The position numbers were made by a program, and so were the translations under genes. The notes beneath the pieces were generated by a model. It made no database searches and had not been told where the DNA came from. It saw only the letters and a program-made list of their open reading frames with translations. This document shows, one piece after another, positions 16,994-54,606 of a DNA stretch of 64,000 nt (position 1 is the first letter of the stretch; every line of letters starts with the position of its first letter). The stretch lies in the NCBI RefSeq assembly GCF_024223415.1, contig NZ_CP100500.1, one strand, 5' to 3'. The stretch comes from Escherichia coli (GTDB lineage: Bacteria > Pseudomonadota > Gammaproteobacteria > Enterobacterales > Enterobacteriaceae).

Positions 16994-17289
16994 AATGGCT
17001 CACTCAAGCTTGCTCACGATTGATTCCAGTAACAAACCGTATTGTGTAATTATTTCTATAGCAGATCGCTATATAGGCTTGTATACATCGAATAATTTGA
17101 AAATCAAAGAGATAGGTAGATTTTCACTCGAAAGTAGTATTACGTGTAAGTGAGGAGTAATTATTGTTCGGTATCAAAGGGAGACAAAAAAAGCGCCCGC
17201 AGGAGATTTAACGGTACTTACTCCTCTTGCTGATTTCCTTATTTTTCAATAAGTAAACAAAAACAAGGGGAGCAAATTATCACAAATAA

Positions 17290-18294
17290 TTACTGGTCGA
17301 TGGACAGTTTATGGACACTTTCAGCCAGCGGATTAAAGCTGATCGCATCCTGTAAAAAGTCCGGTGAAAAATGCGCATACGTCATCGTTTGCTGAATCGT
17401 GGCGTGACCCAGGATCCTCTGCAACGTGACGATGTTCCCGCCGTTCATCATGAAATGCGTGGCGAACGTGTGCCGCATGACATGCGTGGCCTGCCCTTTG
17501 GGTAAGTCGGGCTTCACCTCCTGAAGGATCTCCCTGAAACTGAGATAATCAACCTGATATAACAGGCCGGTCCGGCGGGTTTTAATTAACGGCACAACGG
17601 AATCAGCTACAGGAACCGAGCGCGATTTCCCGTTCTTTGTGTTAAAGAACGTCACCCTGTTACCCACGATGTGTTCCCCGCGAAGCGTTGACGCCTCTTT
17701 CCATCTGGCCCCGGTCGAAAGGCACAGAATGGCAATGCGTCGTGCATCACCCTCAAGCCGTTTCAGAAGGCGATCAATCTCGTCATCTGAAAGAAAGGCC
17801 ATTTCTGTATTCTGAACCTTGAGTTTACGTATTCCGCGCACAGGGTTTTCGTTATGATAAACCTCCGCGTCAATTAACAACGAAAACATCGCAGATAAGG
17901 CGCACAGGTCGCGATTGATACTGGACGGCATCAGTCCCGCCTGCAACTTATCCGAGCGATACTCAATCATGAATTTTCGTGTCATCTGGCTGGCGCGCGG
18001 GTCCCCCATTTCACGTATCACCTTCTCCAGTCTGGTTCTGTAGGTATCACCATATGCCTGATTACGACCATCAAGCATCCACCACACCTCAATCAGTTCT
18101 GATAACCGCCGTTGATCGGCGGGCCTTGCCTGCCACGGGTTATTGTGGAAATTCTGAAGAACGTATCTTTCGAATTCCTGCGCCTTTGATTTCAGGGTGA
18201 AAATCTTACGAATCCGCCTTCCTCCCGCCCCCTGAGGCCTTACATCAACCTGATAACGTCCGTCTTTGAGTTGCTTAATCGACATGATCAGCAC
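17290..18294 (-). CDS. int: P2-type tyrosine integrase
   Basis: 334 aa; N-terminus (SIKQLKDGRYQVDVRPQG...) and C-terminal catalytic region (ILCLSTGARW..., HVMRHTFATHFMMNGGNIVTLQRILGH...YAHF) resemble P2 Int. Confidence 0.9.
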   Translation of the reverse strand: MLIMSIKQLKDGRYQVDVRPQGAGGRRIRKIFTLKSKAQEFERYVLQNFHNNPWQARPADQRRLSELIEVWWMLDGRNQAYGDTYRTRLEKVIREMGDPRASQMTRKFMIEYRSDKLQAGLMPSSINRDLCALSAMFSLLIDAEVYHNENPVRGIRKLKVQNTEMAFLSDDEIDRLLKRLEGDARRIAILCLSTGARWKEASTLRGEHIVGNRVTFFNTKNGKSRSVPVADSVVPLIKTRRTGLLYQVDYLSFREILQEVKPDLPKGQATHVMRHTFATHFMMNGGNIVTLQRILGHATIQQTMTYAHFSPDFLQDAISFNPLAESVHKLSIDQ

Positions 18295-18354
18295 CTCCGA
18301 CGGATAAACCTGTTAACCCCTGCTTACTGAACGCCGCCCGTTCAATATACAGCG

Positions 18355-18696
18355 TCAGCCAGCATTGCGGCCTGATTGGGGTGATTTTTGGGTATTGCGG
18401 GTTGAAACCTGATCGTCCTCCGACTGCGTGGAGCCATCAAGAGAGAGAGCCGGGGCGATCTGACCGGCAACAGGTAGCGTCTTATCTTTGATTAACCAGA
18501 ACATATATTTTTCAAACCGATCCACTTGAAGGACGGCCTCAACAATCTTTGCTCTGGCGATCTTTTGCCCTGACTCATAATTCCTGACAGTTGCCAGAGA
18601 TAACCCTGTAATATCAGCAAATTGCTTTTGAGTTAGCCCTTCCGTCTTGCGTATCAAACGCAACTTTTTCGCATAGTCTATTGACAAGATACTCAT
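18355..18696 (-). CDS. P2 C-like immunity repressor
   Basis: 113 aa with the motifs YESG, KYMFWLI and GQIAPAL in the same order as I recall for P2 C; transcribed divergently from the Cox-like gene. Confidence 0.75.
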   Translation of the reverse strand: MSILSIDYAKKLRLIRKTEGLTQKQFADITGLSLATVRNYESGQKIARAKIVEAVLQVDRFEKYMFWLIKDKTLPVAGQIAPALSLDGSTQSEDDQVSTRNTQKSPQSGRNAG

Positions 18697-18719
18697 TTGG
18701 GGATTAATCTCCTACAAAA

Positions 18720-18737
18720 GATAACCGTACGGTTATC
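18720..18737. promoter_or_regulatory. perfect 18-bp palindrome (putative operator) in the repressor / cox-like divergent intergenic region
   Basis: gataaccgtacggttatc is a perfect inverted repeat, followed by the direct repeat tcatcaaaa x2. Confidence 0.5.
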
Positions 18738-18799
18738 TTTACAAGTCATCAAAAATCATCAAAAGGCGCAACAAGCGCACCAATGCAAGAGGATAACAA

Positions 18800-19321
18800 A
18801 TGCGGGAGATTATTGCCGACAAAGAGTTATCTGGCGCTCAACCGGTTCAGGATGATGGCGCGGACAATGAATTCATTGAAGCTGCCAACGACAACGAACA
18901 CCTGGAAACCAAAACCAGACCGTCCTACAAAAAGGGCGCAACCCTACGACTGGACGGCCCAGTCGCAGGACTTGTGTCACTGGAAAAAGGGGCTGCCTAT
19001 CTGGGGGTAACAAAATCTGCGCTACGCGCCGCCATTCAGCGCGGGCAGATGCCGGGTCACAAAACGCGCTCAAATCCCGAAGATGAAAAGTCAGACGGTA
19101 CATGGTGGTTTAACGCCAAAGCCTGGGACGAACTAGCCGACGAACTACTGGAGTGCGAACCGCCAGAGTGGCACAACTGGAAAAGCTACTGGACGTACGA
19201 CCGCAAGAAAAGAAAGTTTTCACCGGCAAACAAGGAGGACTGCCAGACCGTTAAAGGTAAGCAGGTTTACTCCCCCAGAGTTTCAAAACTGGAGCAACTC
19301 AAAAACAACCAGCCCGGCTAA
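18800..19321 (+). CDS. Cox-like excisionase/regulator with an N-terminal extension
   Basis: 173 aa; the central region (AYLGVTKSALRAAIQRGQMPG ... GTWWFNAKAWDE) parallels P2 Cox. First rightward gene after the repressor. Confidence 0.6.
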   Translation: MREIIADKELSGAQPVQDDGADNEFIEAANDNEHLETKTRPSYKKGATLRLDGPVAGLVSLEKGAAYLGVTKSALRAAIQRGQMPGHKTRSNPEDEKSDGTWWFNAKAWDELADELLECEPPEWHNWKSYWTYDRKKRKFSPANKEDCQTVKGKQVYSPRVSKLEQLKNNQPG

Positions 19322-19329
19322 ACACGAAA

Positions 19330-22643: not shown

Positions 22644-22760
22644 GTAACCACTATGCACACACAAAAAAACCGCTTGCCATGCCGCAATCAGTCAGGTTAC
22701 ATTTCCGCTGCACCTCATAAAACGGGTGCCGGGATTGCAACCCCCGCTGACAAACGAAGC

Positions 22761-22790
22761 GCACAACCGCGCCAGCGGTTTTTTTGTGCG
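22761..22790 (+). terminator. rho-independent terminator (possibly bidirectional)
   Basis: gcacaaccgc-gcca-gcggtt followed by tttttt, embedded in a wider palindrome cgcacaa...ttgtgcg. Confidence 0.6.
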
Positions 22791-22966
22791 TACCGTATCG
22801 CCACGTCTTTTTCGCACCAGAATTATGGTGGGGCGTACGGGGCCGACTTCGGTCGGGCCGGTTTCTTCGTTTGCCGGTGGTTGCAACCCTGTACGTCTCG
22901 CCACCCAGAATTGCAACCTCTGGATGGTGAGTATCCAAAAACTCACAAACGAAGAGGCCAAACACC

Positions 22967-23194
22967 ATGGCAAACCGCAAACAACAGCGCGCATACGCTG
23001 CGCGTCGTCACATCCAGACTGAAATCAACCGCAGACTTTCCCGCGCATTCCGCGTCGCGCATATCATGCACATCAATATGCTGCATGAGCGCAGCCACGC
23101 ACTGTCAAACATGTATTCCGCCGCTGTATTCAGCTACCTGGCGGATGACCTGCGCAAGCTGCAGGACCTCATTAACCAGCACTACCACCACTAA
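22967..23194 (+). CDS. hypothetical protein
   Basis: 75-aa basic ORF (MANRKQQRAYAARRHIQTEINRRLSRAF...). Confidence 0.45.
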   Translation: MANRKQQRAYAARRHIQTEINRRLSRAFRVAHIMHINMLHERSHALSNMYSAAVFSYLADDLRKLQDLINQHYHH

Positions 23195-23681: not shown

Positions 23682-26192
23682 ATGAGCCATCACCACACGC
23701 ACCTGGCGTACCCGTGGAACGCCCCGCTGCCGGTTATTGATCCTGAGACATTCGGCAGAGCATTACCGCAGAAGCCAACCGCATTACAACGGGCAATCCG
23801 TGACTACCTCACCGAAGACATTCGCACTGAGGCCCGGCTGGATGAAGAAACCGTGGCCTTCCTGACAACCACGGACAAAGGTAAGCAAATTAATTCACAC
23901 CTTCACCGGGACGAAGAGCGGCAGATAAGGCTGGATAAGCTGGCACGACACAGACGCGAAAATCCGCCAACGGCGGTATCGGAGGCGATAGCCGAACTTC
24001 GCACCCTGCCCTCGTTTCTTGCCAGTGTGTTGATCCGTGATCTGGCACGACTGAACCGGAAACAGCAAAGTGCCCGCAGTGAAGGTGTAAAAAACAACAG
24101 CGCATACGTGGCCGATAATTTCGTTCGCCGTGGACTGCGTGCGCGCCTGAAACGTATTGAAAGGGTTAACGACCGCTTTGCAACGCCGGCATTCAAAACC
24201 ACCGTCGTGCGCCATCGCCTTGAAGAACTGCTCACACTGCCGCAACTCACCCGTGACGAAATCCAGCGCATCGCCACACTGACAGCCCAGGCATTCGCCG
24301 CAGAATTTGAACGCATATGTGATGAAGTTCTTGAACGGACAGGCAAGGATAATGACAGCCCGGTTATCTGGCTGCTGGCCTACCAGAAGGTGGCACGCAC
24401 AGCCTTAATTCTGGGCGTGGTCCCGCCATACTGGCCGGAACTCGAAATCAGGCACAACCGACGCACACCGCCGGACCCTGAACGGGTTCCGGGTGCGGTA
24501 CTGCGCATCACCTGCGCGACCTGGTGGAACAACCAGTTACGCCACGTCGCCGATCTCTGGCGGGAGGAGTTACTGCGCGCCGCCGGCAGAGTGTCACGTA
24601 AACAATCCCCCTATATCAGCCATGAGTCACTACTGGAGTTCCGCGAGAAGCGCCAGCGCACCCGTGACTTTCTCAAAAGCTGGGATATTGAAAACGAAGA
24701 CGGCGAGCGCCTGAGTCTGGAGGACGTGTACTGGGCTGGCCTGGGTAATCCACGCAACCGCCGCAATGAAATGATGGTCTGCGTCAGAGGGATGGAGATG
24801 GTGGCCGAATTACGGGCTGACGTCGCATTCTTCATCACAGTAACCACCCCTTCCCGCTTTCACAGCGTGAACGAGAACGGCAGCCTGAACCCGAAATACA
24901 ACGGTGCCACAGTACGAGATGCCAGTGATTATCTGGTTTACGACTTCTTCGCAGCCGTAAGAAAAAAAATAAAAAAAGAGGGGCTGGGCTGGTACGGCGT
25001 GCGAACCGCTGAGCCACACCATGACGGCACGCCACACTGGCATATGCTGGTATTCACTTCCCCGGAGAACGCAGAGCGCATCATCGAAATTATGCGCGAA
25101 GCAGCAATTAAATCAGATCGCCACGAACTGGGGGACGATATTTCACCGCGCTTTAAATGCGAGAAGATAGACCCGGAAAAAGGCACACCGGCAAGCTATA
25201 TCGCAACCTATATCGGTAAGAACCTGGACGCCAGCGCTTTCCACAACAATGATCCGAAAACCGGAAAACCTTACGTTGATGAGGAATCCGGGAAAACCAT
25301 GGCGGAAACCGTGGAGAACGCCATTGCCTGGGCAAGCCTTCACCGCATCCGTCAGTTCCAGTTTTTCGGCATTCCGCCCCGCCAGGTATGGCGTGAACTC
25401 CGCCGCCTTGCAAGCCAGATGGAGCGCAACCCGGCATCACCGAAGCACCTCGATCATGACGATATTGACGCCATTATGGCTGCCGCAGATGTGGGATGTT
25501 TTGCCACCTACATCATGAAACAGGGTGGTGTGCTCATTCCGCGCAACCAGTATCTGGTCCGCACCGCATACGAAACCGCAGACGAAGCCAACGACTACGG
25601 TGAATTCCCTCAACGTATCTACGGAATCTGCGCCCCGTCGCTCGGAGAGCGGTACACCATATGCACCCATCCGGACGAGTGGAAACTGGTTAAAAAAGAA
25701 ACAACACCAGACAACCGCACGGGCGAGGGTTTTGACCTTCAGGGCGACCCCGTCGCCCCTTGGACTCGTGGCAATAACTGTCCCCGGGATGAAAAAACAG
25801 ACAATCACGGACCAGAAAACAGGCAGGACCCCGGACGACTGACGCTTCCCGAAGAGAACCTGGAAAGCTGGCTGAATACGTTAAGCAGGGGCGATCGGAG
25901 AAAACTGCGTAATCAGATTAAAAATCAGCCGTCGGGCGCAAAAACCGGACAAAACGACACCACACCGGCATCTGACACCCCTGTAAGGGTGGGGATTGTC
26001 GTGCCTGCGGATACCGCGACGGACACGCAAATCGCCCGCGAACTTGATGCGCTGGGTGTGCAGTTGCCTGACGCGGCCATCATCTCCGTGCGTAACGGTG
26101 CCCGTGTGCGTCTGGATAACGGGGGAACAGCGTACTGGGATGAGTCAGCCCGTCACATCATCACAGAGCAGCCAGTGGAGGCGGGAGCATGA
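23682..26192 (+). CDS. P2 gpA-like rolling-circle replication initiation endonuclease
   Basis: 836 aa with a conserved core including the HxH-type motif (PHWHMLVF) and the surrounding region (FFITVTTPSRFHS...YGVRTAEPHHDGTPHWHMLVF) as in P2/186 A proteins. Confidence 0.85.
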   Translation: MSHHHTHLAYPWNAPLPVIDPETFGRALPQKPTALQRAIRDYLTEDIRTEARLDEETVAFLTTTDKGKQINSHLHRDEERQIRLDKLARHRRENPPTAVSEAIAELRTLPSFLASVLIRDLARLNRKQQSARSEGVKNNSAYVADNFVRRGLRARLKRIERVNDRFATPAFKTTVVRHRLEELLTLPQLTRDEIQRIATLTAQAFAAEFERICDEVLERTGKDNDSPVIWLLAYQKVARTALILGVVPPYWPELEIRHNRRTPPDPERVPGAVLRITCATWWNNQLRHVADLWREELLRAAGRVSRKQSPYISHESLLEFREKRQRTRDFLKSWDIENEDGERLSLEDVYWAGLGNPRNRRNEMMVCVRGMEMVAELRADVAFFITVTTPSRFHSVNENGSLNPKYNGATVRDASDYLVYDFFAAVRKKIKKEGLGWYGVRTAEPHHDGTPHWHMLVFTSPENAERIIEIMREAAIKSDRHELGDDISPRFKCEKIDPEKGTPASYIATYIGKNLDASAFHNNDPKTGKPYVDEESGKTMAETVENAIAWASLHRIRQFQFFGIPPRQVWRELRRLASQMERNPASPKHLDHDDIDAIMAAADVGCFATYIMKQGGVLIPRNQYLVRTAYETADEANDYGEFPQRIYGICAPSLGERYTICTHPDEWKLVKKETTPDNRTGEGFDLQGDPVAPWTRGNNCPRDEKTDNHGPENRQDPGRLTLPEENLESWLNTLSRGDRRKLRNQIKNQPSGAKTGQNDTTPASDTPVRVGIVVPADTATDTQIARELDALGVQLPDAAIISVRNGARVRLDNGGTAYWDESARHIITEQPVEAGA

Positions 26193-32604: not shown

Positions 32605-32632
32605 CAGAAATAACCACAAGAGGTGATAACCG

Positions 32633-33772: not shown

Positions 33773-33774
33773 CC

Positions 33775-37172: not shown

Positions 37173-37187
37173 CACGCGGAGAATGTT

Positions 37188-38422: not shown

Positions 38423-38769
38423 CCGCTGTTTACAGGGGGATGAACCCGCAGGGAACCGGCACGCTGAGCGACAGCGAACACCTGAAAAACAGCGTGCGGG
38501 ATATCCTGACCACACCGCCAGGCAGCCGGGTGATGCGCCGCGAATACGGCAGCCTGTTACCGGACCTCATCGACGAGCCCATGAACGACACCACGCGTTT
38601 ACAGTGCATGAGCGCCACGGTGACTGCGCTGGCGCGCCATGAACCCCGTATAGCACTGCAGAACGTCGATGTGAACTGGCGGGCTGGCGGACGCGCCGTG
38701 GTGACGTTATCCGGCATCATCACCGAAACCATGCAGAACATCACATTCAGTATCACCCTGAGGGAGTAA
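38419..38769 (+). CDS. P2 gpW-like baseplate wedge protein
   Basis: 116 aa (MTAVYRGMNPQGTGTLSDSEHLKNSVRDILTTPPGSRVMRREYGS...); start overlaps the V stop. Confidence 0.85.
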   Translation: MTAVYRGMNPQGTGTLSDSEHLKNSVRDILTTPPGSRVMRREYGSLLPDLIDEPMNDTTRLQCMSATVTALARHEPRIALQNVDVNWRAGGRAVVTLSGIITETMQNITFSITLRE

Positions 38770-38772
38770 ATC

Positions 38773-40225: not shown

Positions 40226-40228
40226 ACC

Positions 40229-42463: not shown

Positions 42464-43074
42464 TGAGTAACACTGCAGTTCTGGATGAAAACGGTATCGC
42501 CACTTTCGCAGGCGATATCACTGTATATCACTATGATGAGGAAACCCGGGAATACACCTCATCCTCTGTGGAGTATCTGGCCCTGGGGGTGGGTACCCCG
42601 GCACATTCATGCGCCGATGCCCCGCCAGAGGCAATGCCGGGTTACGTGATTTGCCGGACGTCCACGCTGGACGGGTGGGAGTATGTCCCCGATCATCGTG
42701 GAGAGACGGTATACAGCACAGAGAACGGTAATCCGGTCCAGATTACCCAACCAGGTGACTACCCGGAAGGGACAACGACAAAACAGCCTGCCACACCATG
42801 GGATACCTGGAACGGTGAGGCGTGGGTAACCGATACAGAACGGCAGCAAGCCGAAGAGCTGGAGGTTGCCAGACAGCAACGCAAGGAACGGGTGGATCAG
42901 GCGATGAAGTCCATCGACCTCATCAACCTTAAGTTGCGGGCAGGTCGCAGTCTGACACCAGAAGAAACGGCAAAACTGAATGCCGTGCTGGATTATATCG
43001 ACGAGCTGAACGCACTGGATATCAGCACGGAGCCTGAAATAAGCTGGCCGGAAACACCACCAGAAATGGAATGA
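42463..43074 (+). CDS. tail fiber assembly chaperone (P2 gpG-like)
   Basis: 203 aa; start overlaps the H stop; MSNTAVLDENGIATFAGDITVYHYDEETREY... is typical of tail fibre assembly proteins. Confidence 0.85.
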   Translation: MSNTAVLDENGIATFAGDITVYHYDEETREYTSSSVEYLALGVGTPAHSCADAPPEAMPGYVICRTSTLDGWEYVPDHRGETVYSTENGNPVQITQPGDYPEGTTTKQPATPWDTWNGEAWVTDTERQQAEELEVARQQRKERVDQAMKSIDLINLKLRAGRSLTPEETAKLNAVLDYIDELNALDISTEPEISWPETPPEME

Positions 43075-43144: not shown

Positions 43145-43633
43145 TCACATCAGATCATTTACGCCGCTTACTGTGGTATTCCAGACCGAACTTAACTTCC
43201 CTTTCATTCCCGAAAGCATATCAGACACCGGTGACGAGGCCATACTCTCCCGCAAATCCTCATCACAGCGTTCCAGACTGACAGTGAACTCAATTTTTTT
43301 GGCCTTACCGTGGCGGTCAAGTTCGCTTCGCGTTGTGCGGACAGCCGTTATCACATACATGCCGTATATCTGCCCCACACCGTCAATCAGCGGCCATGGG
43401 CGACCAGTGTAAGCCTGCGTCGTTAAAAGGCTGAGGGAAACCTCACCGCCGGTAATTTCGGGATAAAGCACACCGGACAACGTGATCTGGTCGTCACCCG
43501 CCCCGATATACTGCCAGCTGGCCGAACGATTGATGCGTTCATTTTTAACGTGGCGCCAGGTTTTATTATGTTGCAGTTGTTGATGAGGCAGCGTACGCAA
43601 CTCAAAAACAAACATGCCGTAAATCATCATCAT
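43145..43633 (-). CDS. P2 gpU-like tail protein
   Basis: 162 aa (MMMIYGMFVFELRTLPHQQLQHNKTWRH...); last gene of the leftward sheath-tube-tape-measure block. Confidence 0.8.
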   Translation of the reverse strand: MMMIYGMFVFELRTLPHQQLQHNKTWRHVKNERINRSASWQYIGAGDDQITLSGVLYPEITGGEVSLSLLTTQAYTGRPWPLIDGVGQIYGMYVITAVRTTRSELDRHGKAKKIEFTVSLERCDEDLRESMASSPVSDMLSGMKGKLSSVWNTTVSGVNDLM

Positions 43634-43644
43634 GCGAGGTACTC

Positions 43645-46600
43645 CTAATCTCTGTCACGGAAACTACCGACTGTCTGGCGGATACGGCGTTCCATTTCCG
43701 CACGGACGGCATCACCCACCATTTTTGCCAGTTCGCGCGGGTTTTGCGTGTGAACATCATGCAGGTGAATATGCAGTTCGCCAGTTAATCCCCATGGTGC
43801 CGCCTCACTCTGGCGCGGTCGGGGCGATGCGGGGGATATGGGCTGGCGCACAGCCTCAACCACCGGACGGGATGTTGCCGCCATCACTGGTGTCATTAGC
43901 GGGGAGAACGTCGGCATGACATCGTGAGTCATAACCGGTTTGATCACCGGCGGAACCACTGGCGTAATATTACCGGACAGTACCGGACGGACGACCGGAG
44001 GAATAACCGGCACATTATTCACGGACACCACCGGCTTCACGACCGGCGACACGTTCGCCGTGGTGGATATCAGCGGCGAAACACTGACAGGCGGTGGCGC
44101 TGGCAGCGGTGGCAACGAAGGCACACTGACCGACGGCACCTGCGGCAGTCTGACAGGTGGCTCACTGACACTACCCGGTAACAGGGAAGCTGCGCGGTTA
44201 AAGCGTTCCTCCTTCCACTCACCACGAACGGCCAGCGCTTCCGGCAGGTTTTTAAAGATAATATCGCCGGGACCAGCGCGTTTTTTCGCCTGTTTCGCCT
44301 CATCCAGCAGACCACCGGTGTTATCGACGATTTTGTTCAGGCGGCGCATAGTGCCGGTATTCTCCCCCGTCAGGGGTGGTTGCCCCCCTTTGGGTTTTTC
44401 GCCGTATTTTTTATCCTCGTCCTTTTTCGGCGGATTAATGACGTTAACATCCGCCAGAAGCATGGCAGCTTTCTCGTTCAGCAACTCCTTCTGTTTTAGT
44501 TCTTCCGCTTTTTTCCGGGCGCGCTCAACCGCTGACGGAATCAGCCCGAGTTTTTCCAGCACCCGGGTTAATGAGTCAATCAGCAGCGTAACCGGACCGG
44601 TCACCAGATTGCTGATAAACTCCCCGACCTTCTGCCCGAACGTCCGCCCGGCTTCCGTGCACTTGTCCAGCTCATCCTTTGTTGTGCTTACCGGCGCGAA
44701 CAAATCCACGAACCACTGCCACACACGCCCGATTGTCTGCCCGACATACTCAAACAATGGTCCCAGTGGTGCCACAGCCTCGCGCAGTGGCGTAAGCCCC
44801 TGCCACAGGCCGGACAAGAACCCGCCCACGACAGCCTTCAGCTGGTCCCAGTGCCGCCAGATAAGCACTGCCGCACCGACCAGTGTCGCCACCACAAGGC
44901 CCACCGGACTTAACAGAAAACCCAGCGCCCCGCCAAGTGCGCCCACCGCACCACTCACCATCCCCCACAGTGCGGGCAGACCTGACAGTCTGAGCGCCAG
45001 TATTCCGATACCGCGCCCCAGTGAAATCAGTGCGCCGCCAGGTGAAGTGAACGCAGCCAGCAGACCACCACGCAGCGCGCCAAGTCCCGCCTGCACACCA
45101 CGAAGCCGCCCCGCAACTACGCCCAGCAGTGCAGCAAACCGTCCGGCACCGGAGGTGATACCGACAAACAGCACGCGCCAGCCACCGATACCGCCCAGCG
45201 GACCACCGAGTACGCCGCGCAGCTGCGTCAGTAACGGCAGCGCACGACCGAGGCCGGATGTGCCGGTCAGCAGGGCAAACCCAAGACGCAGTTTTGCCAG
45301 CGGCCCCATCAACACACCAGTGGCAAGTGACAGCGCCCCCATGGCCGCAACCGCAGCCAGCAGTACACCACCGGCAATCAGCAGTTGTTTTGTCAGTTCA
45401 GGGTGCGCCTGAGCCAGCGCGGTGACTTTCGCAATAACCCGGGTGAACGACTGCGTGACAGAACGCAGCGGCCCGTCAACGAGGTCAGCGATACGGATAC
45501 GCAGTCCTTCCCATGCGCTGTTCAGTGATTTCAGGTCACCGTCCAGGTTATCAACCATAACACGGGCAGTCTGATTAAGTTCCCCGGTGGCCAGTTCAAT
45601 CTCCTGCGTAAGACGGGGAAGATTATTTTCCCCCGCCGCAGTGACAAGATTCATCAGGGAAACATAGGACTCCTGCCCGGCAATAGCCCTGAAAAAGGAG
45701 ACCTGCGCGGCATTACCGTATTTTCGGGTGGCCTGGTACAGCTCATTCAGGATATTTTCCATCCGGCGCATGTTCCCGTAAGCATCCTGCGTCTCCACGC
45801 CAAGCTCTTTCAGTGCCATTGCAGCGGCCTTCGGCGGATCAACCAGACGTGACAGACTGGCACGCAGCGCCGTACCTGCATCACTTCCACGGATCCCCAC
45901 ACTGCCAAGGACACCCGTCATGGCTGCCGCCTGTTCAAGGGACAGGCCAAGTGAAGCTGCAACCGGCCCCGTGTACTTCATGGTTTCACCCAGCGAACGG
46001 AGATCCGTATTGGTTCGTGTGAAGGTGGCGGCCAGCGTGTCACCCACGCGATCCATCTGGTCAGCGGACAGACCAAACTGTGTGAGGATATTCGAACTGA
46101 TATCGGCAGTCTGTCCCAGGTCCATCCCTGCAGCCATTGCCAGATCAAGCACGCCGGGTAGCGCCGCCTGTATGGCCTGTGGTGTGAAGCTGGCCATGGC
46201 AAGGAACGCCTGACCGCTGGCAGCATCACCGGCGGTAAACTGCGTTTCAGAGCCCAGCTTAATGGCCTGTTCGCGCAGCGCCTTAAACTGCGGACTGTTT
46301 TTGTCAATACGGGTCAGCGCCTGGACGCGCGACATCTCCTTACCAAAACTGACCGCCGGTTGCAGGAAACGTCCGGCCGCATAGCCGCCTGCCGCCGCCG
46401 TACCAACCGCCGTAAGTCCGACCGTTTTAAGTTTTCCCGCCGTCTCCTGAGCACGGGAATATTGCTGGCGTGCCTGCGTGACACGTGCCAGCGCCTGCCG
46501 TTCGCGTTCCAGCTGGTCGTTGTATTGCTGTGTTCGCCGTATGGCCTGTTGAATGGTGTTGTCACTGCCGGAAAGCGCAATACCGTGGCGCCGCAGCTCA

Positions 46601-46956
46601 CCACCCAGTTCGCGCATTCGCTGAACTTCACGCGCACGGACCTCATTGAGACGCTCAAGTTTGAGGCTCAAATCGTTCATCAGCTTTTTCTGTTTGTCAG
46701 ACAGCACGGTTCCGGCGCGCTGAATTTGCTGAAGTGCGCTTAACTGGCGTTGCGCCCTGACAATGCCGTTTCCGGCCTTGTTTGCAGCCTCGCGGGCGCG
46801 ATCAAATGAACGGGCGTGGCGTTCCAGGTTTTTGATCGCACCCTGCGTTCTCTGTATGGAGTCGCCAAGCTGGCCCATCATGCGACGGGCGTTTTCGGTG
46901 GGACGGGTCAGCCTGTCAACAGCGCTGAAGGCGACCCGTATATCAAGCGTTTTCAT
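43645..46956 (-). CDS. tail tape measure protein (P2 gpT-like)
   Basis: ORF 43645-46992; ATG at 46956 (MKTLDIRVAF...) overlaps the predicted E' stop, giving ~1103 aa. Long helical N-terminus and Gly/Ala-rich membrane-like core typical of tape measure proteins. Confidence 0.85.
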   Translation of the reverse strand: MKTLDIRVAFSAVDRLTRPTENARRMMGQLGDSIQRTQGAIKNLERHARSFDRAREAANKAGNGIVRAQRQLSALQQIQRAGTVLSDKQKKLMNDLSLKLERLNEVRAREVQRMRELGGELRRHGIALSGSDNTIQQAIRRTQQYNDQLERERQALARVTQARQQYSRAQETAGKLKTVGLTAVGTAAAGGYAAGRFLQPAVSFGKEMSRVQALTRIDKNSPQFKALREQAIKLGSETQFTAGDAASGQAFLAMASFTPQAIQAALPGVLDLAMAAGMDLGQTADISSNILTQFGLSADQMDRVGDTLAATFTRTNTDLRSLGETMKYTGPVAASLGLSLEQAAAMTGVLGSVGIRGSDAGTALRASLSRLVDPPKAAAMALKELGVETQDAYGNMRRMENILNELYQATRKYGNAAQVSFFRAIAGQESYVSLMNLVTAAGENNLPRLTQEIELATGELNQTARVMVDNLDGDLKSLNSAWEGLRIRIADLVDGPLRSVTQSFTRVIAKVTALAQAHPELTKQLLIAGGVLLAAVAAMGALSLATGVLMGPLAKLRLGFALLTGTSGLGRALPLLTQLRGVLGGPLGGIGGWRVLFVGITSGAGRFAALLGVVAGRLRGVQAGLGALRGGLLAAFTSPGGALISLGRGIGILALRLSGLPALWGMVSGAVGALGGALGFLLSPVGLVVATLVGAAVLIWRHWDQLKAVVGGFLSGLWQGLTPLREAVAPLGPLFEYVGQTIGRVWQWFVDLFAPVSTTKDELDKCTEAGRTFGQKVGEFISNLVTGPVTLLIDSLTRVLEKLGLIPSAVERARKKAEELKQKELLNEKAAMLLADVNVINPPKKDEDKKYGEKPKGGQPPLTGENTGTMRRLNKIVDNTGGLLDEAKQAKKRAGPGDIIFKNLPEALAVRGEWKEERFNRAASLLPGSVSEPPVRLPQVPSVSVPSLPPLPAPPPVSVSPLISTTANVSPVVKPVVSVNNVPVIPPVVRPVLSGNITPVVPPVIKPVMTHDVMPTFSPLMTPVMAATSRPVVEAVRQPISPASPRPRQSEAAPWGLTGELHIHLHDVHTQNPRELAKMVGDAVRAEMERRIRQTVGSFRDRD

Positions 46957-47469
46957 GCTCTGCGTTCCCGCTGCGAAGGGCCGCCCGCTCACGCCAGGCG
47001 ACCACCTCGCCGGGATCCATCAGGAAGATTTCAGCGGGAGACCAGTTGAAAATAACGGCGATATCCGCCACAAAGTCTTCAATGTGCTCAAAGGGCACGA
47101 CGGTTATCAGCCTGCCGTCGCCGCCCCGCTCTTCCCGCCAGAGTCCTGACCGGCCAAAAAATTAACCGCCACCCCGCACAGCTGAATAAAATCAGCGGAC
47201 CCCATGCGCTTAAGCAGAACCTCGTCCAGTCGCGGCGAAGTGACGCGCGGGAGTAACTCAAACATCGCGTCCGTTTTCATGTTCAGCACGTCAAGCAGTG
47301 ACAGCCCGCGCAGTGAACCGGCCTGCTGTACAGCAGGCGTGATTTCCACATACGTGATTTTTTTGTTACCGAGCACAAGGGGCGTTTTCAGCGTCACGCC
47401 GCGCTCACTGGTCACGTCCGCCGCATCAGCACCGTCAGTAACAGGGGCAACAACCGGATTTTCTTTCAT
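46952..47469 (-). CDS. tail assembly chaperone E (47107-47469) and its -1 frameshift extension E+E' (to 46952)
   Basis: 120-aa E ORF ends at 47107. A TTTTTTG slippery heptamer (minus strand, 47155-47161) lies near its 3' end; after a -1 shift the frame runs to a TGA at 46952-46954 that overlaps the T start codon. Confidence 0.7.
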
Positions 47470-47519
47470 GCATAAAACCTCAAATCAGGGGGCGACGCCG
47501 CGCGCCGCCGTGGGAAACA

Positions 47520-48038
47520 TTAACCACCAAGACCAATCGCCGAGCGCACGCGGTCCGGGAAGACGTTTTTGCCGTCCTTGCGTTCGATGTGGTTCAGTAA
47601 ATCAATCTCCAGCACCGGACGGTCGTTAATGCTGAGTTTGTAGTAGGTACTCCTGACCGCATAGGTGTGAGACGTGACCTCACCCTGTTTTGCCTCCCCC
47701 GTATCAATTTCCGTCACGCGGCCGCGAAGCTCAATTTCATACAGGTCGCTCTGCTCTTCATCGTTGTAGTACTCACCGACAAAGCGCAGCAGCGTACCGT
47801 CGATCGTGCCGCCGTACTTAAGGAACAGTTCGCGGGTCGGCCCGCCCATGGTGAAACTCGCATCCAGCGCGCCGTCATCCAGACCAAGGTCGATATTCAC
47901 CGCGCCGGCCATACCACCACCGCGATAGGCTTCCGTTTTACGGGTCAGTTTGGGGGGCGTGAAGCCGGTCACCCTGCCAATCTGGTTCACCCCGTCAGTA
48001 AACAGCGTGAACACCCTGAGATTTTTTGGTACGGCCAT
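47520..48038 (-). CDS. P2 gpFII-like tail tube protein
   Basis: 172 aa (MAVPKNLRVFTLFTDGVNQIGRVTGFTPPKLTRKTEAYRGGGM...). Confidence 0.88.
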   Translation of the reverse strand: MAVPKNLRVFTLFTDGVNQIGRVTGFTPPKLTRKTEAYRGGGMAGAVNIDLGLDDGALDASFTMGGPTRELFLKYGGTIDGTLLRFVGEYYNDEEQSDLYEIELRGRVTEIDTGEAKQGEVTSHTYAVRSTYYKLSINDRPVLEIDLLNHIERKDGKNVFPDRVRSAIGLGG

Positions 48039-49321
48039 TAAGCACCTCCAAGCGTCGCAAATGCAGGACCAAAGAATTCATCAGTAAACGTCTGGTAAAG
48101 TTCCATATCCTCAAGCGGCGGAACGGGCGTGTACTTGTAGCGGATACGCACGCGTCCCTGACGAAGTTCCGTGGTGCTGTTATCCACCACGTCATACCAG
48201 CACTCCGCACCAATGAGACGTCCTGACGTAACCAGCGCATCCAGTTTTGCGCGAATTGCGCTTAACACGTCTTTCACATTAGCAGGGGTCAGCGGGGCAT
48301 CAATCGTTTCAAACTGCGCTTCCGCAATGGAATCAGCCAGCACCTGAGCGGTTCGCGTGTACACCTCAAAGATATACGCCTTCGTTTCCGGCGTACGGTT
48401 GCCCCAGAAGCGGAAACCGTTACGGCAAATGATGGTAGTGATTTCCTTGTTGTTGAGATTGTTGGCATCGCTGTCTTCGGACTGAAGGGACCAGAACACC
48501 GGGCTGGAAATACCCAGCACATTTGTTACCGGCACGTTGGACAGCGATTTATGCCAGCCCTGTTCGTGGTCAATACGTGCACGTAAACCGCAGGCGTACG
48601 CCGCAGCCGGGAAGACCTCATTAGCGCCGGATTTCGGGTTATAGGCGATGAAGTCAGGCCAGAGCAGCATAAGTTCGCGCTCGTTAAATCTGGCGCGGTA
48701 GCTGATTGCATCAGCGGGCTTCTTGCAGTTGTGACAGCCCGCGTAGACAAATGCGCGAAGTTTTTCTGCAATTACACACAGGGATTTTGTGACAGCTTCA
48801 GTATCCAGTCCGGGAGCTGCGATGATGCGCGGACGGTAACCGATGGCATCATCCTGTTCAGCTATCAGAAGTGCATACATACCGGTATAATTACCGTCGC
48901 CATCCGTGCCACCAATGACATACTGGTCCTGCGTTTTGTGTGGGTATACAGGATGTGCATCTTCAGACTCATCAATACCAAAAAATGCCCTGTCTTCAGG
49001 ATCCAGATGACCGAATGATGTAACTCCTGTATCCGGGGCGCCCTGAGAACTGGTATCAGGAACGCGCACCACAATCACCTTCGTGCTCACCTGGTCGGCG
49101 ACAGCCTTAAGCGATTTGTAAAGCGTCCCCTTTGTGCCGGCCTTACCCAGCACATCACTGACGCGGGTCAGCAGTGTGGGTTTGTTCAGCGGGAACAGAG
49201 TTTCATCCGCGTCATCTGCCGTAGCCACAATACCAATAACACTGGAATCCACATCATTAATGGCGGTGGCAAGGCCGGTACTTTCCCTTACGCGCGCACC
49301 ATGAAAGCGTGTTTCACTCAT
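48038..49321 (-). CDS. P2 gpFI-like tail sheath protein
   Basis: ORF 48038-49468; start placed at MSETRFHGARV... (49321). Blocks ...FPLNKPTLLT...GTKGTLYKSL..., ...LRARIDHEQGWHKSLSNV..., ...RNGFRFWGNRT..., ...YTRTAQV..., ...YTPVPPLE... parallel P2 FI. Confidence 0.88.
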   Translation of the reverse strand: MSETRFHGARVRESTGLATAINDVDSSVIGIVATADDADETLFPLNKPTLLTRVSDVLGKAGTKGTLYKSLKAVADQVSTKVIVVRVPDTSSQGAPDTGVTSFGHLDPEDRAFFGIDESEDAHPVYPHKTQDQYVIGGTDGDGNYTGMYALLIAEQDDAIGYRPRIIAAPGLDTEAVTKSLCVIAEKLRAFVYAGCHNCKKPADAISYRARFNERELMLLWPDFIAYNPKSGANEVFPAAAYACGLRARIDHEQGWHKSLSNVPVTNVLGISSPVFWSLQSEDSDANNLNNKEITTIICRNGFRFWGNRTPETKAYIFEVYTRTAQVLADSIAEAQFETIDAPLTPANVKDVLSAIRAKLDALVTSGRLIGAECWYDVVDNSTTELRQGRVRIRYKYTPVPPLEDMELYQTFTDEFFGPAFATLGGA

Positions 49322-49482: not shown

Positions 49483-50574
49483 ATGAAAGAGCTGTCAGTT
49501 ACCGTTCCGTCACCGGATATCGACATCACCATCAACAACAACACACTGGCAAACCTCACAGAGCGACTCATGACGCTGACCCTGACGGATAACCGGGCCT
49601 TTGAGGCAGACCGCGTCACCCTCACCCTTGACGATACGGACGGGCAGTTACAGTTGCCACCACGTGGCGCACGCCTGAGAGTGATGATTGGCTGGCGAGG
49701 AGAATCACTGGTTAACAAGGGCACCTACGTCGTTGATGAGGTTGCGTGGGAAGGACCTCCAGATAAACTGATCATCACCGCCAGCAGCGCAGATTTTCGG
49801 GAAGAGTTCAACGTGAGGCGGGAGGTATCCTGGCACGACGTGACCGTAAAACAGGTTGTGTCAGCCATCGCTCACCGCTACGGCCTGAAGACACAGATAA
49901 GCGAAATCCTCATGGATATCGAAATTGACCACGCTGACCAGACCGAAGAGAGCGATATATCCTTCCTGACCCGCATGGCTGAAATGCTGGGTGCGATTGC
50001 CACCGTAAAAAACGGCAGCCTGTTATTCATTCTGCCGGGTGGCGGAACCGGGCCGGACGGAAGAGCCCTGCCTTCGTTCGCCATTACCCGCAGCAGCGGC
50101 GACAGTCACCGCTTTCGCATTGCTGACCGTGATGCGTATACGGGGGTCCGGGCGCACTGGCTCGATCTGAAGTTCGGGCAAAAGAAAAAAGTGAACGTGA
50201 AGCGACGCAGGGAAGCCGGGAAACAGAAACAGGAGAAGAGCAGCAGCCGGGAGGGTGATTACATGGAAGGCGCGGAAGGGAACGTCTACGTTCTGCGCAG
50301 GACTTACCAGAATGAAGAAACCGCACGACGTGCAGCTGCGGCAAAGTGGCAGGAGTTACAGCGGGGAGCAGCGGCATTCTCCATCACTCTGGCACGGGGT
50401 CGTGCCGACCTGTACCCCGAAATGCACGGCAGGGTAACAGGTTTTAAAAGCGAGGTGGACAATCAGGACTGGATTATTGCCAGGGTGGAGCACATCATAG
50501 ATGAAAGCGGCTTCACCACACAACTGGAGCTGGAAGCGAAAATCCCCGAATGGATAGCAGATTCAGGCGGATAA
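49483..50574 (+). CDS. P2 gpD-like tail protein
   Basis: ORF 49447-50574; ATG at 49483 follows aggaga. Blocks LTLTDNRAFEAD, SWHDVTV, HADQTEESDISFLTRMAEMLGAIATVKNGSLLF, ITRSSGDSHRF, GRADLYPE parallel P2 D. Confidence 0.88.
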   Translation: MKELSVTVPSPDIDITINNNTLANLTERLMTLTLTDNRAFEADRVTLTLDDTDGQLQLPPRGARLRVMIGWRGESLVNKGTYVVDEVAWEGPPDKLIITASSADFREEFNVRREVSWHDVTVKQVVSAIAHRYGLKTQISEILMDIEIDHADQTEESDISFLTRMAEMLGAIATVKNGSLLFILPGGGTGPDGRALPSFAITRSSGDSHRFRIADRDAYTGVRAHWLDLKFGQKKKVNVKRRREAGKQKQEKSSSREGDYMEGAEGNVYVLRRTYQNEETARRAAAAKWQELQRGAAAFSITLARGRADLYPEMHGRVTGFKSEVDNQDWIIARVEHIIDESGFTTQLELEAKIPEWIADSGG

Positions 50575-50617
50575 AATTAAAATGAGCCATCTCCACTCAG
50601 CCAGATAAGGAGAAGCC

Positions 50618-50869
50618 ATGTTCCGTTGTCCCCTATGCGGTGCATCCGCACGTATCCGCACCAGTCGCAATGAAAATGATTCAGGCACAGTTCGCCTGAA
50701 GTACTACCAGTGCAATAACCTCGAATGCGGGATCGGCTTTACCACACTGGAGGGTTTTAACAAATTCACATCAAAACGCGCCCCGTCGCCGCAGGGTACA
50801 GAGCGGATACCGTGGGAAGATTTTCCGGGATCTCACAGGGGGAATACTCAGATTAATCTTGATATTTAA
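50618..50869 (+). CDS. ogr: Ogr/Delta-family zinc-finger late gene activator
   Basis: 83 aa; MFRCPLCGASARIRTSRNENDSGTVRLKYYQCNNLECGIGF parallels P2 Ogr (MFHCPLC...YHQCQNVNC...) with a C4 zinc finger (C4, C7, C32, C37). Confidence 0.85.
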   Translation: MFRCPLCGASARIRTSRNENDSGTVRLKYYQCNNLECGIGFTTLEGFNKFTSKRAPSPQGTERIPWEDFPGSHRGNTQINLDI

Positions 50870-51804
50870 GAACAATAATCAGGTTGAGAGGACATCATAA
50901 GGCAAGTAGATTAACGGCAGATACTTTCCCGCAACCACGGGCAAGTATTTAATTATCCATGATGAAATATGACCTAAATTGTTTTTTGCCCGCCGGAAAG
51001 CGGGCATTTTTTTATTCTTTTGTGGTTATGGGGTCATCAGGAACCACGTGCAGATTATATTTTTGTTTTTTTGGCGTTCCTCCGGCAGCAACGAGTTCAT
51101 CAATAAGACACTGACACGCCTGAACATCCCGGGCATGTCTTAGTTTCACCTTTATTGATTTAACCTTATCCTCACCGGAGGAGAAATGCAGTTCAATCTC
51201 AATATCGTTTCTTCGGAACAATCTCATACGCCCCCTGAATATATCAGAAATACTAGTATCGAAAAATGAGAAAACAGTTAGACAGGAGAAACATATTAAC
51301 ACAAATCATTTATACCTATAGATGAAATTATAATTTCATTCATGAATATGATAGATAACTATATTGTGAACAAAATGAAAAATGGCTAAATTAAAAATGG
51401 GCATGGAGGAATGCCCGGTTATCAATATAATGTGACGTAGATCATTGTTTTGCCCGCCGGAGAGCGGGCATTTTTTTTGCGCCTGCCATCGAGGCGCCTT
51501 CCCTGGCGCACACAAAGCAGCCCTGATTTTCCATGAAAACTTCAGGGTTGAGCTGCGGGCACAAAGTGAGTAGATTAGCTACGGGTACCTCCCCCTGACA
51601 ACAGGAAGGGTGTCCATTATCCATGATATACAAACGAAAAGTCTTGTTTTTTGCCCGCCGAAGCGCGGGCATTTTTTTATGCATCAGACAAGATACAGCC
51701 CACCCCAACTGACACCTGAAATATTGCCGCAACAAAAAGAAACAGTTAAATTACGCGCGGGTGCCTTTCGGCTGATGGCCGGAGGGAAAACCTGAAGGCC
51801 GGAT

Positions 51805-52038
51805 GTGGAAAGGCCCCGGAAAACATTTCTGTTTAACCGAGGCCCTAACCGCATTACCTTGACAAGTGAAAGGTTAGCGCCTCTCCGGAAAAGGAGCAAG
51901 TGCTATGTCGCAAAAATCGCTTACGGCCATCACGTTCTGCGTGACGGCAATCCTCATCATCTGGATATTGCACGGTTCGCTGTGCGAAATACGGATGAGC
52001 TTCTGGGGAGCGGAGTTTGCGGCGTTCTTACAATGTAA
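51805..52038 (+). CDS. mok-like overlapping reading frame upstream of and overlapping the hok-like gene
   Basis: 77-aa ORF in a different frame that overlaps the Hok-like ORF, as in hok/mok/sok loci; may be regulatory rather than a stable protein. Confidence 0.35.
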   Translation: MERPRKTFLFNRGPNRITLTSERLAPLRKRSKCYVAKIAYGHHVLRDGNPHHLDIARFAVRNTDELLGSGVCGVLTM

Positions 52039-52045
52039 GAAGTAA
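51905..52045 (+). CDS. Hok/Gef-family type I toxin-like small membrane protein
   Basis: 46 aa, MSQKSLTAITFCVTAILIIWILHGSLCEIRMSFWGAEFAAFLQCKK: N-terminal transmembrane helix plus the conserved SLCEI...AAF... C-terminal pattern of Hok proteins. RBS aaaggag upstream; terminator at ~52140-52170. Confidence 0.7.
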   Translation: MSQKSLTAITFCVTAILIIWILHGSLCEIRMSFWGAEFAAFLQCKK

Positions 52046-53909
52046 GGAAACCGCGACGGGGGAGCAATCCCCCGTCAATCGGTTGCCAGGGTAAGGTCGA
52101 TAAGGCACCCTATCTCACAGACATGAACAAACAAACCCGCAGCATAAAAACTGCGGGTTTTCTTTTTGGTGTCCTCACCGACTTGAAACAGTGATCAGAC
52201 TATAAGACAAAGCCCGCAATGTTGCGGGCTTACTCTACCTCTCGAAAATGTGGTCACTGCGTGGACATACGCTGATACAAATCCTTTATATCAATAAATT
52301 AAATCTTTGTTTTTTTCATCAACAATGATTTAACCTTATCCTCACCGGAGGAGAAATGCAGTTCAATCTCAATATCGTTTCTGTGGAACAGCCTCATAAG
52401 ACAACCTCCTGAATTCATCAGAAACACAGTCAACTGAAAACCAGAAAGCAGACAAACAGTGGACACACATTAATACAAATCATTTATACCTATAGATGAA
52501 ATTGCAGTTTCATCTATAACATGACAGGTAACAATATTGTGAAAAAACTCAAAACTCGTTAGATTAAAGACGGACAGAGCAATGCTACTTTATCAATAAC
52601 ATGTAACCTGTACTTCCTTATTTTGCCCGCCGAAGCACGGGCATTTTTTTTGCGCCTGCCATCGAGGCGCCTTCCCTGGCGCACACAAAGCAGCCCTGAT
52701 TTTCCATGAAAACTTCAGGGTTGAGCCAAAAGCACAAAGACAGTAGATTAACCACGGGTGCCTTCCACCTGACAACAGGAAGGGTGTCCAGTATCAATGA
52801 CAGACAACTCACATTGCTGTTTTGCCCGCCGGAAAGCGGGCATTTTTTTATTCTTTTGTGGTTATTGGGTCATCAGGAACAACATGCAGATTATGCTTTG
52901 ATTTTTTTGGTGTTATTACAGCAGCAACGAGTTTATTAATAAGACACTGACATGCCTGAACATCCCTGACATATCATAATATCACTTTATTTTTTTAGCT
53001 TGTCCTTTCTGGAGCAGAAATATCTCAACATCGTTTCTGTGGAACAACCTCATTTGCCCTTGAATGTATCATAAATATCAGCATCGGAAAACCAACAGCA
53101 ATACAGAAGAAACATGTTAATGCAAATCACTTATACCTATAGATGAAATTACAGTTTTGTTCATAAATATGATAAGTAACTATATTGTGAATAAAATGAA
53201 AACTAGCTAAATTAAACGTGGGCATGGTGGAATGCCTCGTAATCAATAATACATGATCCGTACTTCCTTGTTTTGCCCGCCGGAAAGCGGGCATTTTTTT
53301 GGCGGTTACCATCGCCTCACCTTCCTGGTTCACATGAAGCAACCCTGATTTTCCATGAAAACTTCAGGGTTGAGACAAAAGCACAAAGACAGTAGATTAA
53401 CCACGGGTACCTTCCACCTGACAACAGGAAGGCTGTCCAGTATCAATGACAGACAACTCACATTGCTGTTTTGCCCGCCGGAAAGCGGGCTTTTTTTGGC
53501 AGTTATCATAGCCGCACCTTCCTGGCACATATGAAGCAACCCTGATTTTCCATGAAAACTTCAGGGTTGAGACAAAAGCACAAAAACAGTAGATTAACCA
53601 CGGGTGCCTGCCACCTGACAACAGGAAGGGTGTCCATTATCCATGATATACAAACGAAAAGTCTTGTCTTTTGCCCGCCAAAGCGCGGGCATTTTTTTAT
53701 GCATCAGACAAGATACAGCCCACCCCAACTGACACCTGAAATATTGCCGCAACAAAAAGAAACGGGTGCCTTTCGGCTGATGGCCGGAGGGAAAACCTGA
53801 AGGCCGGATGTGGAAAGGCCCCGGAAAACATCTGTGTTTAACCGAGGCCTGACCCTTCCTACCGTGACAAGTGGAAGGTTAGCGCCTCTTTGTAAAAGGA
53901 GCAAGCGCT

Positions 53910-54050
53910 ATACCGCAAAAAACGATTATTGTTGGCATTTTATGCCTGACAATAACCCTGGTCATCTGGATGGTCCACGATTCGTTATGTGAATTCAGCT
54001 TTGATATCTGGGGAGCGCGTTTTGCGGCGTTCTTGCAGTGTAAACCGTAA
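53910..54050 (+). pseudogene. second Hok-family copy with a non-canonical start (ATA in place of ATG)
   Basis: Same frame and context as the first copy (...ggagcaagcgctATAccg...) giving (I)PQKTIIVGILCLTITLVIWMVHDSLCEFSFDIWGARFAAFLQCKP; ~60% identical to copy 1. The upstream mok-like ORF (53810-53992) is present. Confidence 0.5.
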
Positions 54051-54583
54051 GAAACCGCAGCGGGGGAGAAATTCCCCGCTATCCGGTTGTTGGGGTGGGC
54101 CGATATGGCGCCCTTTCCCTGTAGAGACAAAACAAAAAACCAGATTTGCCCGCCATTGAGAGGGCTTTTTTGTCACCCTCACCAGTGAGGGCATCATCAT
54201 TCAGAGGCGCGTAAGCCACCCGGCGTTAACATCCTGCCTGTCAACCCTGGCCGCAGAGTCTGAACGGCAGGTACCGGAAGGAGTACCAAAAACATCCCTG
54301 ACAAGTTCCGCCACCTTCCCGATATCATCAGGTGTCACATTCCTCACCTCGGCAGTGATCCGTGGCGTACCATCATCGTTAACAAGAGTGGCTTTAAAGC
54401 TGGTGCGAAGGGAAAACAACATCAACATCCCCTCCCTTTGGTTCGTTGCACTGACGGCACGACACCATCAGGAAAAAGAAAAGCCCACAACGTCAGTATT
54501 GTGGACTTTTTTCTTCAAAGATGGACATTATCTGGACACATGAAAATAAAATCCATTTATTTTCATATAGTTAAGTACCATGC

Positions 54584-54606
54584 AAAAGCGCCCGCAGGCG
54601 CTTTTT
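54584..54606 (-). terminator. serS rho-independent terminator (contains the attR core)
   Basis: aaaaGCGCCcgcaGGCGCttttt immediately downstream of the serS stop on the minus strand. Confidence 0.75.

Follow-up and report, generated by a model that had tools for sequence, protein, structure and literature searches.

An apparently complete P2-family prophage at the serS-dmsA terminator hairpin of Escherichia coli

The DNA analyzed here is a 64,000-nucleotide stretch of an Escherichia coli chromosome (contig NZ_CP100500.1 of assembly GCF_024223415.1), referred to below as the window, in which a prophage lies between the host genes dmsA and serS. On the left, dmsA (14549..16993, - strand) is an open reading frame (ORF) of 814 amino acids (aa), annotated under this name in near-identical loci and transcribed away from the insertion point. 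On the right lies serS (54627..55919, - strand), whose terminator serves as the attachment site. The integrase gene int and the ogr gene lie at opposite ends of the prophage, and a 15-bp sequence, AAAAGCGCCCGCAGG, is found at both of its junctions with the host. The int stop codon (17290-17292) is 87 bp away from the left, int-proximal copy (17189..17203, + strand). The right copy (54584..54598, + strand) falls within the hairpin of the serS terminator (54584-54606), at a distance of 29 bp from the stop codon of serS (54627).

Core repeat and empty site

The repeat has several features expected of the core of an attachment site. First, it occurs exactly twice in the window, with 0.01 copies expected by chance and none of 100 shuffled sequences holding two copies, and no third copy was found in the window even when one mismatch was allowed. 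Second, the repeat extends imperfectly to 21 bp with two mismatches (AAAAGCGCCCGCAGG[A/C]G[A/C]TTT), and its 15-bp core is identical at both junctions and also present in the empty attB. Third, the right copy covers the serS hairpin, GCGCC-CGCA-GGCGC at 54588-54601, from its left arm through the loop to the second nucleotide of its right arm, and this hairpin has A and T runs on its flanks. When position 17203 is joined to 54599, the sequence AAAAAAAGCGCCCGCAGGCGCTTTTT is obtained, and the resulting dmsA-serS spacer is 210 + 28 = 238 bp long.

The joined flanks were compared with other E. coli genomes by using 16703-17203 joined to 54599-55098 as a query against 5426 complete genomes, the set on which all genome counts below are based. 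A contiguous empty site (at least 80% of the query covered, 96-99.9% identity) was found in 5076 of them, always with annotated dmsA adjoining serS. In addition, two prophage-free genomes were aligned with both window junctions and showed no difference from the joined flanks across the junction, with a spacer that is also 238 bp (dmsA end at 791 and serS start at 1030 in the extracted loci). The attB site is thus the hairpin AAAAAAAGCGCC-CGCA-GGCGCTTTTT between serS and dmsA. The initial annotation had described an exact 15-bp direct repeat, a left copy about 87 bp beyond the int stop, a right copy inside the serS terminator, and outer flanks that restore the hairpin and a spacer of ordinary length when joined, and all of these descriptions agree with the measurements given here. 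Its central claim of a clean site-specific insertion also stands, since the spacer of the empty site equals what remains of the window when the insert is removed, and no prophage-free spacer differing from the joined flanks was seen among the 5076 genomes. Taken together, we conclude with high confidence that 17204-54598 (37,395 bp, one core copy counted) is one apparently complete P2-family, P88-related prophage, which was inserted site-specifically by attP x attB recombination in the serS-dmsA hairpin.

Integrase, attachment arms and host transcripts

The int gene (17290..18285, - strand) encodes a P2-type tyrosine integrase of 331 aa when read from ATG, and the ORF continues to a GTG at 18294 (331-334 aa). 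Pfam domains Int_N (3.4e-30) and Phage_integrase, in two stretches, were detected in the protein, which is 91% identical to Int of prophage PhiECO5 of strain UTI89 and 56% identical to Int of a record labelled Peduovirus P2. It contains the motifs HVMRHTF, LGH and TYAHF, and the catalytic HxxR, H and Y motifs can be recognised in its alignment with the P2-labelled Int. The N-terminal sequence RYQVDVR carries the Y, D and R residues that serve as discriminators of the P2 type (PMC3448106). Next to int lies the gene for a C-type immunity repressor with a helix-turn-helix (18355..18696, - strand), which matches the transcriptional regulator family phrog_147 (3e-28) and is annotated as a helix-turn-helix protein by the Prokaryotic Genome Annotation Pipeline (PGAP) in a near-identical locus. 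It is followed by the gene for a Cox-family regulator and excision directionality factor (18800..19321, + strand; phrog_23196, 1.6e-92), which PGAP calls a 'Cox family DNA-binding protein'. The cox gene lies near int and is divergent from the repressor gene, as in a P2-type attachment module.

Both phage arms carry two direct repeats in the same orientation with an 11-bp period. In the int-side arm, the TGGACA repeats ATGGACAG and ATGGACAC (17300..17318, + strand) are 11 bp apart, overlap the last int codons and are putative Int sites. In the ogr-side arm, the TGGACA repeats ATGGACAT and CTGGACAC (54521..54539, + strand), also 11 bp apart, stand next to an AT-rich near-palindrome (54540..54566, + strand) that is a candidate site for integration host factor. 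A terminator-like hairpin (54479..54510, both strands) is also found in this phage end, and the P2-labelled record has a hairpin at the same position. The arm repeats fit the P2-type arm consensus tgTGGaCa (PMC3448106), and they are conserved in the diverged PhiECO5-type junctions of UTI89 and S10EC although the neighbouring sequence is not. When attP was rebuilt from the two phage arms and compared with the int-ogr interval of the P2-labelled record, the same order of elements was obtained in both: arm repeats over the int stop, core, AT-rich near-palindrome, two arm repeats and terminator-like hairpin.

The position of the crossover can be narrowed by comparing two core variants. In the PhiECO5 type (UTI89, S10EC and 569R5), the core is 20 bp long, AAAGCGCCCGCAGGCGCTTT, which means that the whole hairpin is duplicated. 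The window lineage has GGAGATTT where the PhiECO5 type has GGCGCTTT, and identity ends at 15 bp as a result of these two substitutions. The intersection of the 15-bp and 20-bp cores, AAAGCGCCCGCAGG, must contain the crossover, and the exchange must lie to the left of the two substitutions because they remain on the phage side of the left junction. Using these elements, a recombination mechanism can be proposed. The N-terminal domain of Int would bind the TGGACA repeats. As core-type sites Int would use either half of the hairpin, these halves being natural candidates in inverted orientation since the attB hairpin is palindromic. Strand exchange would occur inside AAAGCGCCCGCAGG, the 14 bp common to both core types, with an overlap that is most likely 8 bp or less and centred on the hairpin dyad. 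The predicted overlap region, in which unmatched changes should block recombination, is CCCGCAGG. Excision would be directed by Cox and is predicted to yield an attP of ...GTTAAGTACCATGC-AAAAGCGCCCGCAGG-AGATTTAACGGTAC... and a restored attB of ...GACAAAAAAAGCGCCCGCAGGCGCTTTTTAG....

The hairpin appears to serve more than one host transcript. A cmscan search placed Rfam STnc130 (RF02084), a putative enterobacterial small RNA (sRNA), at 17084..17218 on the + strand, with the attachment site as its terminator hairpin and with phage DNA as the 3' arm of this hairpin in the window. The match scores 125.8 bits in the window, 139.3 in the UTI89 lysogen and 140.1 in the empty site (gathering score 55), and STnc130 has been listed as a 'putative sRNA' adjoining dmsA (PMC3632133). 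The serS-dmsA hairpin therefore appears to be a bidirectional terminator shared by serS (- strand) and the convergent putative STnc130 (+ strand). On the serS strand of the right junction, the hairpin is kept (-15.1 kcal/mol, compared with -15.4 in the empty site), but only four of the seven U that follow it in the empty site are present in the lysogen, and it escapes a simple terminator scan. The terminator arm that the initial annotation assigned to attP thus restores the serS stem but not the full U-run. Read-through from serS could be stopped by the phage hairpin at 54479-54510, about 75 nt beyond the serS hairpin. At the left junction, the hairpin energy changes from -14.1 to -1.1 kcal/mol in the window lineage. 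Judged from these predicted folds, the window lineage would rebuild the serS side only and leave STnc130 and int without a proper hairpin at the int-side junction, and PhiECO5-type phages, which duplicate the whole hairpin, would leave both transcripts terminated. Because STnc130 is itself only putative, any effect on it is speculative. We also noted a 9-bp perfect inverted repeat between host STnc130 sequence (GAGGAGTAA, 17152-17160) and phage sequence to the right of the core (TTACTCCTC, 17223-17231). Its pairing gives a predicted long hairpin of -25 kcal/mol at the left junction, which is absent from PhiECO5-type junctions and perhaps due to chance.

Gene content, cargo and state of the prophage

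The gene content of the element is that of a P2-family phage. A near-identical (99.9%) prophage in the chicken isolate DG341-1 is annotated by PGAP with a full P2-family gene set, including capsid, gpO, P/M terminase, Q portal, lysis genes, baseplate and contractile tail (with tail fibre, sheath, tube and tape measure), gpA, gpD and ogr, and the ORFs are found in the window. In the early region, a pair of isrK-like and C4-like antisense RNAs (22710..22908, + strand) was identified with Rfam scores of 61.9 bits for isrK and 79.3 bits for C4, both above the gathering scores, and it is followed by a 75-aa ORF (22967..23194) that PGAP names 'derepression protein'. The pair and this ORF resemble the C4-controlled antirepressor module of the P1/P7 type, and the pair is also present in UTI89 PhiECO5. 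A gpA-type replication endonuclease (23682..26192, + strand) is encoded by an 836-aa ORF and named from PGAP of the DG341-1 prophage. The portal (Q) and large terminase (P) genes (28807..31613, - strand) were assigned from ORFs and PGAP. The late genes at 31768..43074 (+ strand; PGAP) comprise scaffold O, the P2-family major capsid N, small terminase M, L, X, holin, lysozyme, LysB/C, R, S, V, W, J, I, tail fibre H and G, and their DNA is 77-80% identical to that of P88-like phages. The GC content of the late genes is 55-62%, and in the 33000-40000 region it is 56-62% versus about 51% in the flanking chromosome and the early region, which suggests that the structural module may have been acquired from a host lineage of higher GC. 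The tail operon FI, FII, E/E', T and U (43145..49321, - strand) is inverted relative to the P2 arrangement, that is, with respect to H/G and D/ogr, and UTI89 PhiECO5 is arranged likewise. It contains the tape-measure gene (43645..46992, - strand; TIGR01760, 1.7e-75), an uninterrupted 1115-aa ORF whose product aligns end to end with the UTI89 homologue (54% identity) with no frameshift and with two expansions, one hydrophobic and Gly/Leu-rich and the other Pro/Val-rich. The genes for gpD and the ogr/Delta late activator (49483..50869, + strand; ORFs and PGAP) complete the set.

Several observations weigh against the reading of a complete and active prophage with a well-defined attachment site, and they are gathered here. 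The crossover would be localised to 14 bp and not to exact cleavage positions. STnc130 is only a putative sRNA, whose strand is taken from the Rfam model. An excised attP was sought in IMG/VR with two exact patterns, one for each core type together with the int-side arm, and these gave 0 and 1 match. The records filed as phages that carry this integrase are vB_EcoM-569R5 (ON470599), vB_EcoM-705R2 and Entero_P88_NC_026014(23), the first of which is a prophage prediction at this site. The tape-measure gene of the DG341-1 copy is flagged as incomplete by PGAP. Moreover, E. coli LH10-b-1 (NZ_CP100530.1) has a derivative of about 21 kb at the same site, in which both ends and the tail genes are kept and the replication, terminase and head genes are missing. 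By its gene content this derivative is apparently a decaying copy, and the element may be decaying in some hosts.

Some of these observations would also fit a cryptic remnant, that is, a prophage that was inserted as described and is now fixed, non-excisable or non-productive. In its favour are the LH10-b-1 deletion derivative and the PGAP call on the tape-measure gene of a 99.9%-identical copy, and, in addition, the two positions just beyond the 15 bp at which the lineage core differs from the host hairpin and the lack of a virion-derived or circular genome with this attP among phage records and IMG/VR. We nevertheless regard it as unlikely for the window prophage. The P2-family structural, lysis, replication and regulatory genes are all present as ORFs, the tape-measure ORF is unbroken and aligned to the end of its UTI89 homologue, and int, cox, the two cores and the arm repeats on either side are all intact. 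Furthermore, about 19 genomes of chicken and human origin, sampled in several countries, carry the prophage at 99.7-99.9% identity, which fits recent spread. The intact parts and the near-identical copies in unrelated hosts suggest that the integrase, and the element as a whole, may be active.

The region between ogr and the right junction (50880..54200) is a low-GC cargo (0.42-0.44) nearly without annotated genes, and only about 30 of the genomes hold at least 80% of it. It contains five units of about 132 nt, each starting with GGTTGAG (50882, 51546, 52719, 53368 and 53565), and three units of about 250 nt (51228-51480, 52398-52655 and 53054-53300), and all eight units end in a common + strand terminator, which reads GCCCGCCGGAAAGCGGGCATTTTTTT or closely resembles it. 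In their consensus fold, the short units form two hairpins and the terminator, with little covariation. An Rfam scan of the repeat cargo gave no family, only sub-threshold sok matches and noise. Two hok/sok (mokW-like) modules, of a kind common to P88-like and Stx phages, are located 2005 bp apart at 51759-52072 and 53764-54077. The first has an intact 46-aa Hok ORF (51905-52045), and the second is 72-82% identical and apparently degenerate; the Rfam sok matches of 46-48 bits are under the gathering score of 59. For a small 71-aa ORF (51012..51227, - strand; MRLFRRNDIEIELHFSSGEDKVKS...), the one match is to phrog_14142, a family without assigned function, and is confined to the C-terminal half of that family. 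The ORF occurs in three copies, of which only the first is full length and the partial ones are near 52299-52397 and 53022-53053. Defence systems were searched with PADLOC (0 matches for 10 proteins) and NCBIfam (0 matches for the cargo ORFs). The repeat units may be prophage small RNAs or decayed duplications. A bolder proposal is that the two substitutions beside the core abolish the int-side terminator, so that STnc130 transcripts would enter the 3' end of int in antisense and int transcripts would reach the control region of dmsA, which would couple the host sRNA promoter to int or dmsA, and, separately, that the serS-side array is an undescribed prophage sRNA family. We consider this proposal improbable.

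The duplications near serS also bear on the integrity of the insert. A composite locus, made up of a prophage and the right-end remnant of an earlier resident, would account for the two hok/sok modules, of which the second is degenerate, for the repeated units of about 132 nt and 250 nt and small-ORF units, and for the low GC of the region. This explanation appears very improbable, since no third core copy, even at one mismatch, and no second integrase were found, and since the repeats stop at 54077, leaving the last 500 bp with the arm repeats, terminator and core in single copy. In addition, the repeat module is single in the right end of a related prophage at copA, which argues that it is owned by the phage and was amplified internally. 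This related prophage, in E. coli CS5L (NZ_CP158311.1 3902897-3913807), agrees with the window prophage in its tail, D and ogr genes and contains the small-ORF/repeat cargo once, and adjoins copA rather than serS. The backbone shared between the copA and serS sites fits exchange of int/att modules among P2-like phages. Finally, the possibility that the 15-bp repeat is due to chance or to a property of terminators, with the true ends of the element elsewhere, has nothing in its favour except that short GC-rich hairpin sequences recur in genomes, and it is practically negligible given the chance expectation of 0.01 copies, the empty sites in 5076 genomes that break exactly at the repeat, and independent lineages with the same core.

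Use of the site and comparison with known systems

Occupancy of the site by the site-specific prophages described here was estimated with a probe of 400 bp that spans the left junction (150 bp from the host and 250 bp from the phage) at a coverage of at least 80%. The left junction was present in 343 genomes (6.3%), a number that agrees with the 350 genomes without a contiguous empty site. About 325 of the 343 fall within the 80-95% identity bands of the PhiECO5/ST131 type, and about 18 are of the window type, which matches the 18-19 genomes that hold at least 80% of the right 24.6 kb of the prophage. The search of other genomes called for by the initial annotation therefore finds the site occupied, and shows it to be neither rare nor new. 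PhiECO5 of UTI89 has been listed at 911187-948481 (Nilsson & Haggard-Ljungquist 2011, PMC3448106). The UTI89 record places the end of serS at 911155 and the start of dmsA at 948688, with hok and ogr adjoining serS and int adjoining dmsA. From these coordinates and gene positions, PhiECO5 occupies the same site in the same orientation as the window prophage. The serS-dmsA site was thus already catalogued in 2011 and is often used, though it is no classical P2 site. A literature search for a prophage at serS and dmsA returned nothing relevant, and the site was recognised only through the coordinates in Table 1 of PMC3448106.

Two candidates were tried and rejected in the course of the database searches. 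The single IMG/VR match was rejected as an excised attP, being a prophage junction with dmsA, and vB_EcoM-569R5 (ON470599.1 9500-13500, 'partial genome') was rejected as an isolated phage, as it has most of host dmsA beside the integrase. Other 'phage' database records with this integrase may likewise be prophage predictions that retain dmsA.

The serS-dmsA terminator is thus regularly used for attachment by P2-like phages of one integrase group, and is occupied in 6.3% of complete E. coli genomes. As a discovery this carries little weight, being correct but ordinary, with the core fixed to 14 shared bp. However, the site and its two core variants can be useful for the exact annotation of prophage ends. 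A small new point is that the bidirectional terminator appears to be shared with a putative sRNA, and that phage lineages would differ in whether they rebuild both of its sides.

Compared with known systems, the window prophage is closest in its attachment module to PhiECO5, with which it shares attB, the Int specificity group and the arm architecture. Site, orientation, arm repeats and AT-rich palindrome are alike, Int is 91% identical, and the gene order is the same, including the inverted FI-U tail operon and the isrK/C4 pair. In contrast, the core of PhiECO5 is 20 bp rather than the 15 bp shared in the window lineage, and the structural genes have diverged (tape measure 54%; DNA about 78% to ST131-type relatives). 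A tail-fibre invertase and parM are found only in PhiECO5, which is without the 3-kb repeat cargo. The closest isolated phages are Escherichia phage P88 and its relatives (Xuanwuvirus, Peduoviridae), with DNA 77-80% identical over the replication, terminase, portal and capsid genes and with a similar right-end hok/mokW module. However, the int region of P88 is unmatched at the DNA level, as the match starts at query position 2606 and covers 22-29% of the query.

Several features are common to the window prophage and P2. The integrase is of the P2 type and combines an N-terminal arm-binding domain with core-binding and catalytic domains, direct repeats of the tgTGGaCa type are found in each arm, C and Cox form the switch, and int lies at the prophage end with arm repeats over its stop codon. 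Integration is intergenic rather than in a tRNA gene, which is typical of P2-type integrases (PMC3448106). It differs from P2 in Int (about 56% identical), in core and site, in the inverted tail operon and in the late-gene GC of 55-62%. The label P2-like is thus right as to the family but the phage is not P2 itself, the element being P88-like and Xuanwuvirus-related. The remark of the initial annotation that the serS terminator is no classical P2 site proved sound, as the site used is the serS-dmsA hairpin, the Int proteins are only about 56% identical, and P2 (at 2165238 in MG1655 coordinates), WPhi and PhiD160 have their sites away from serS-dmsA (PMC3448106, Table 1).

The window prophage also resembles the integrators of tRNA genes and ssrA, in which the core lies over the stem-loop at the 3' terminus of an RNA gene, a structure that the phage copy rebuilds. 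P2-type remnants are also found adjoining cyaR. Temperate phages residing in the 3' ends of small RNA genes include 186 in tRNA-Ile and Fels-2 and SopEPhi in ssrA (PMC3448106). Unlike in these systems, the structure rebuilt in the window terminates a protein-coding gene, the putative sRNA that converges on this gene is left truncated, and the core is far shorter than the 50-110 nt of tRNA sites.

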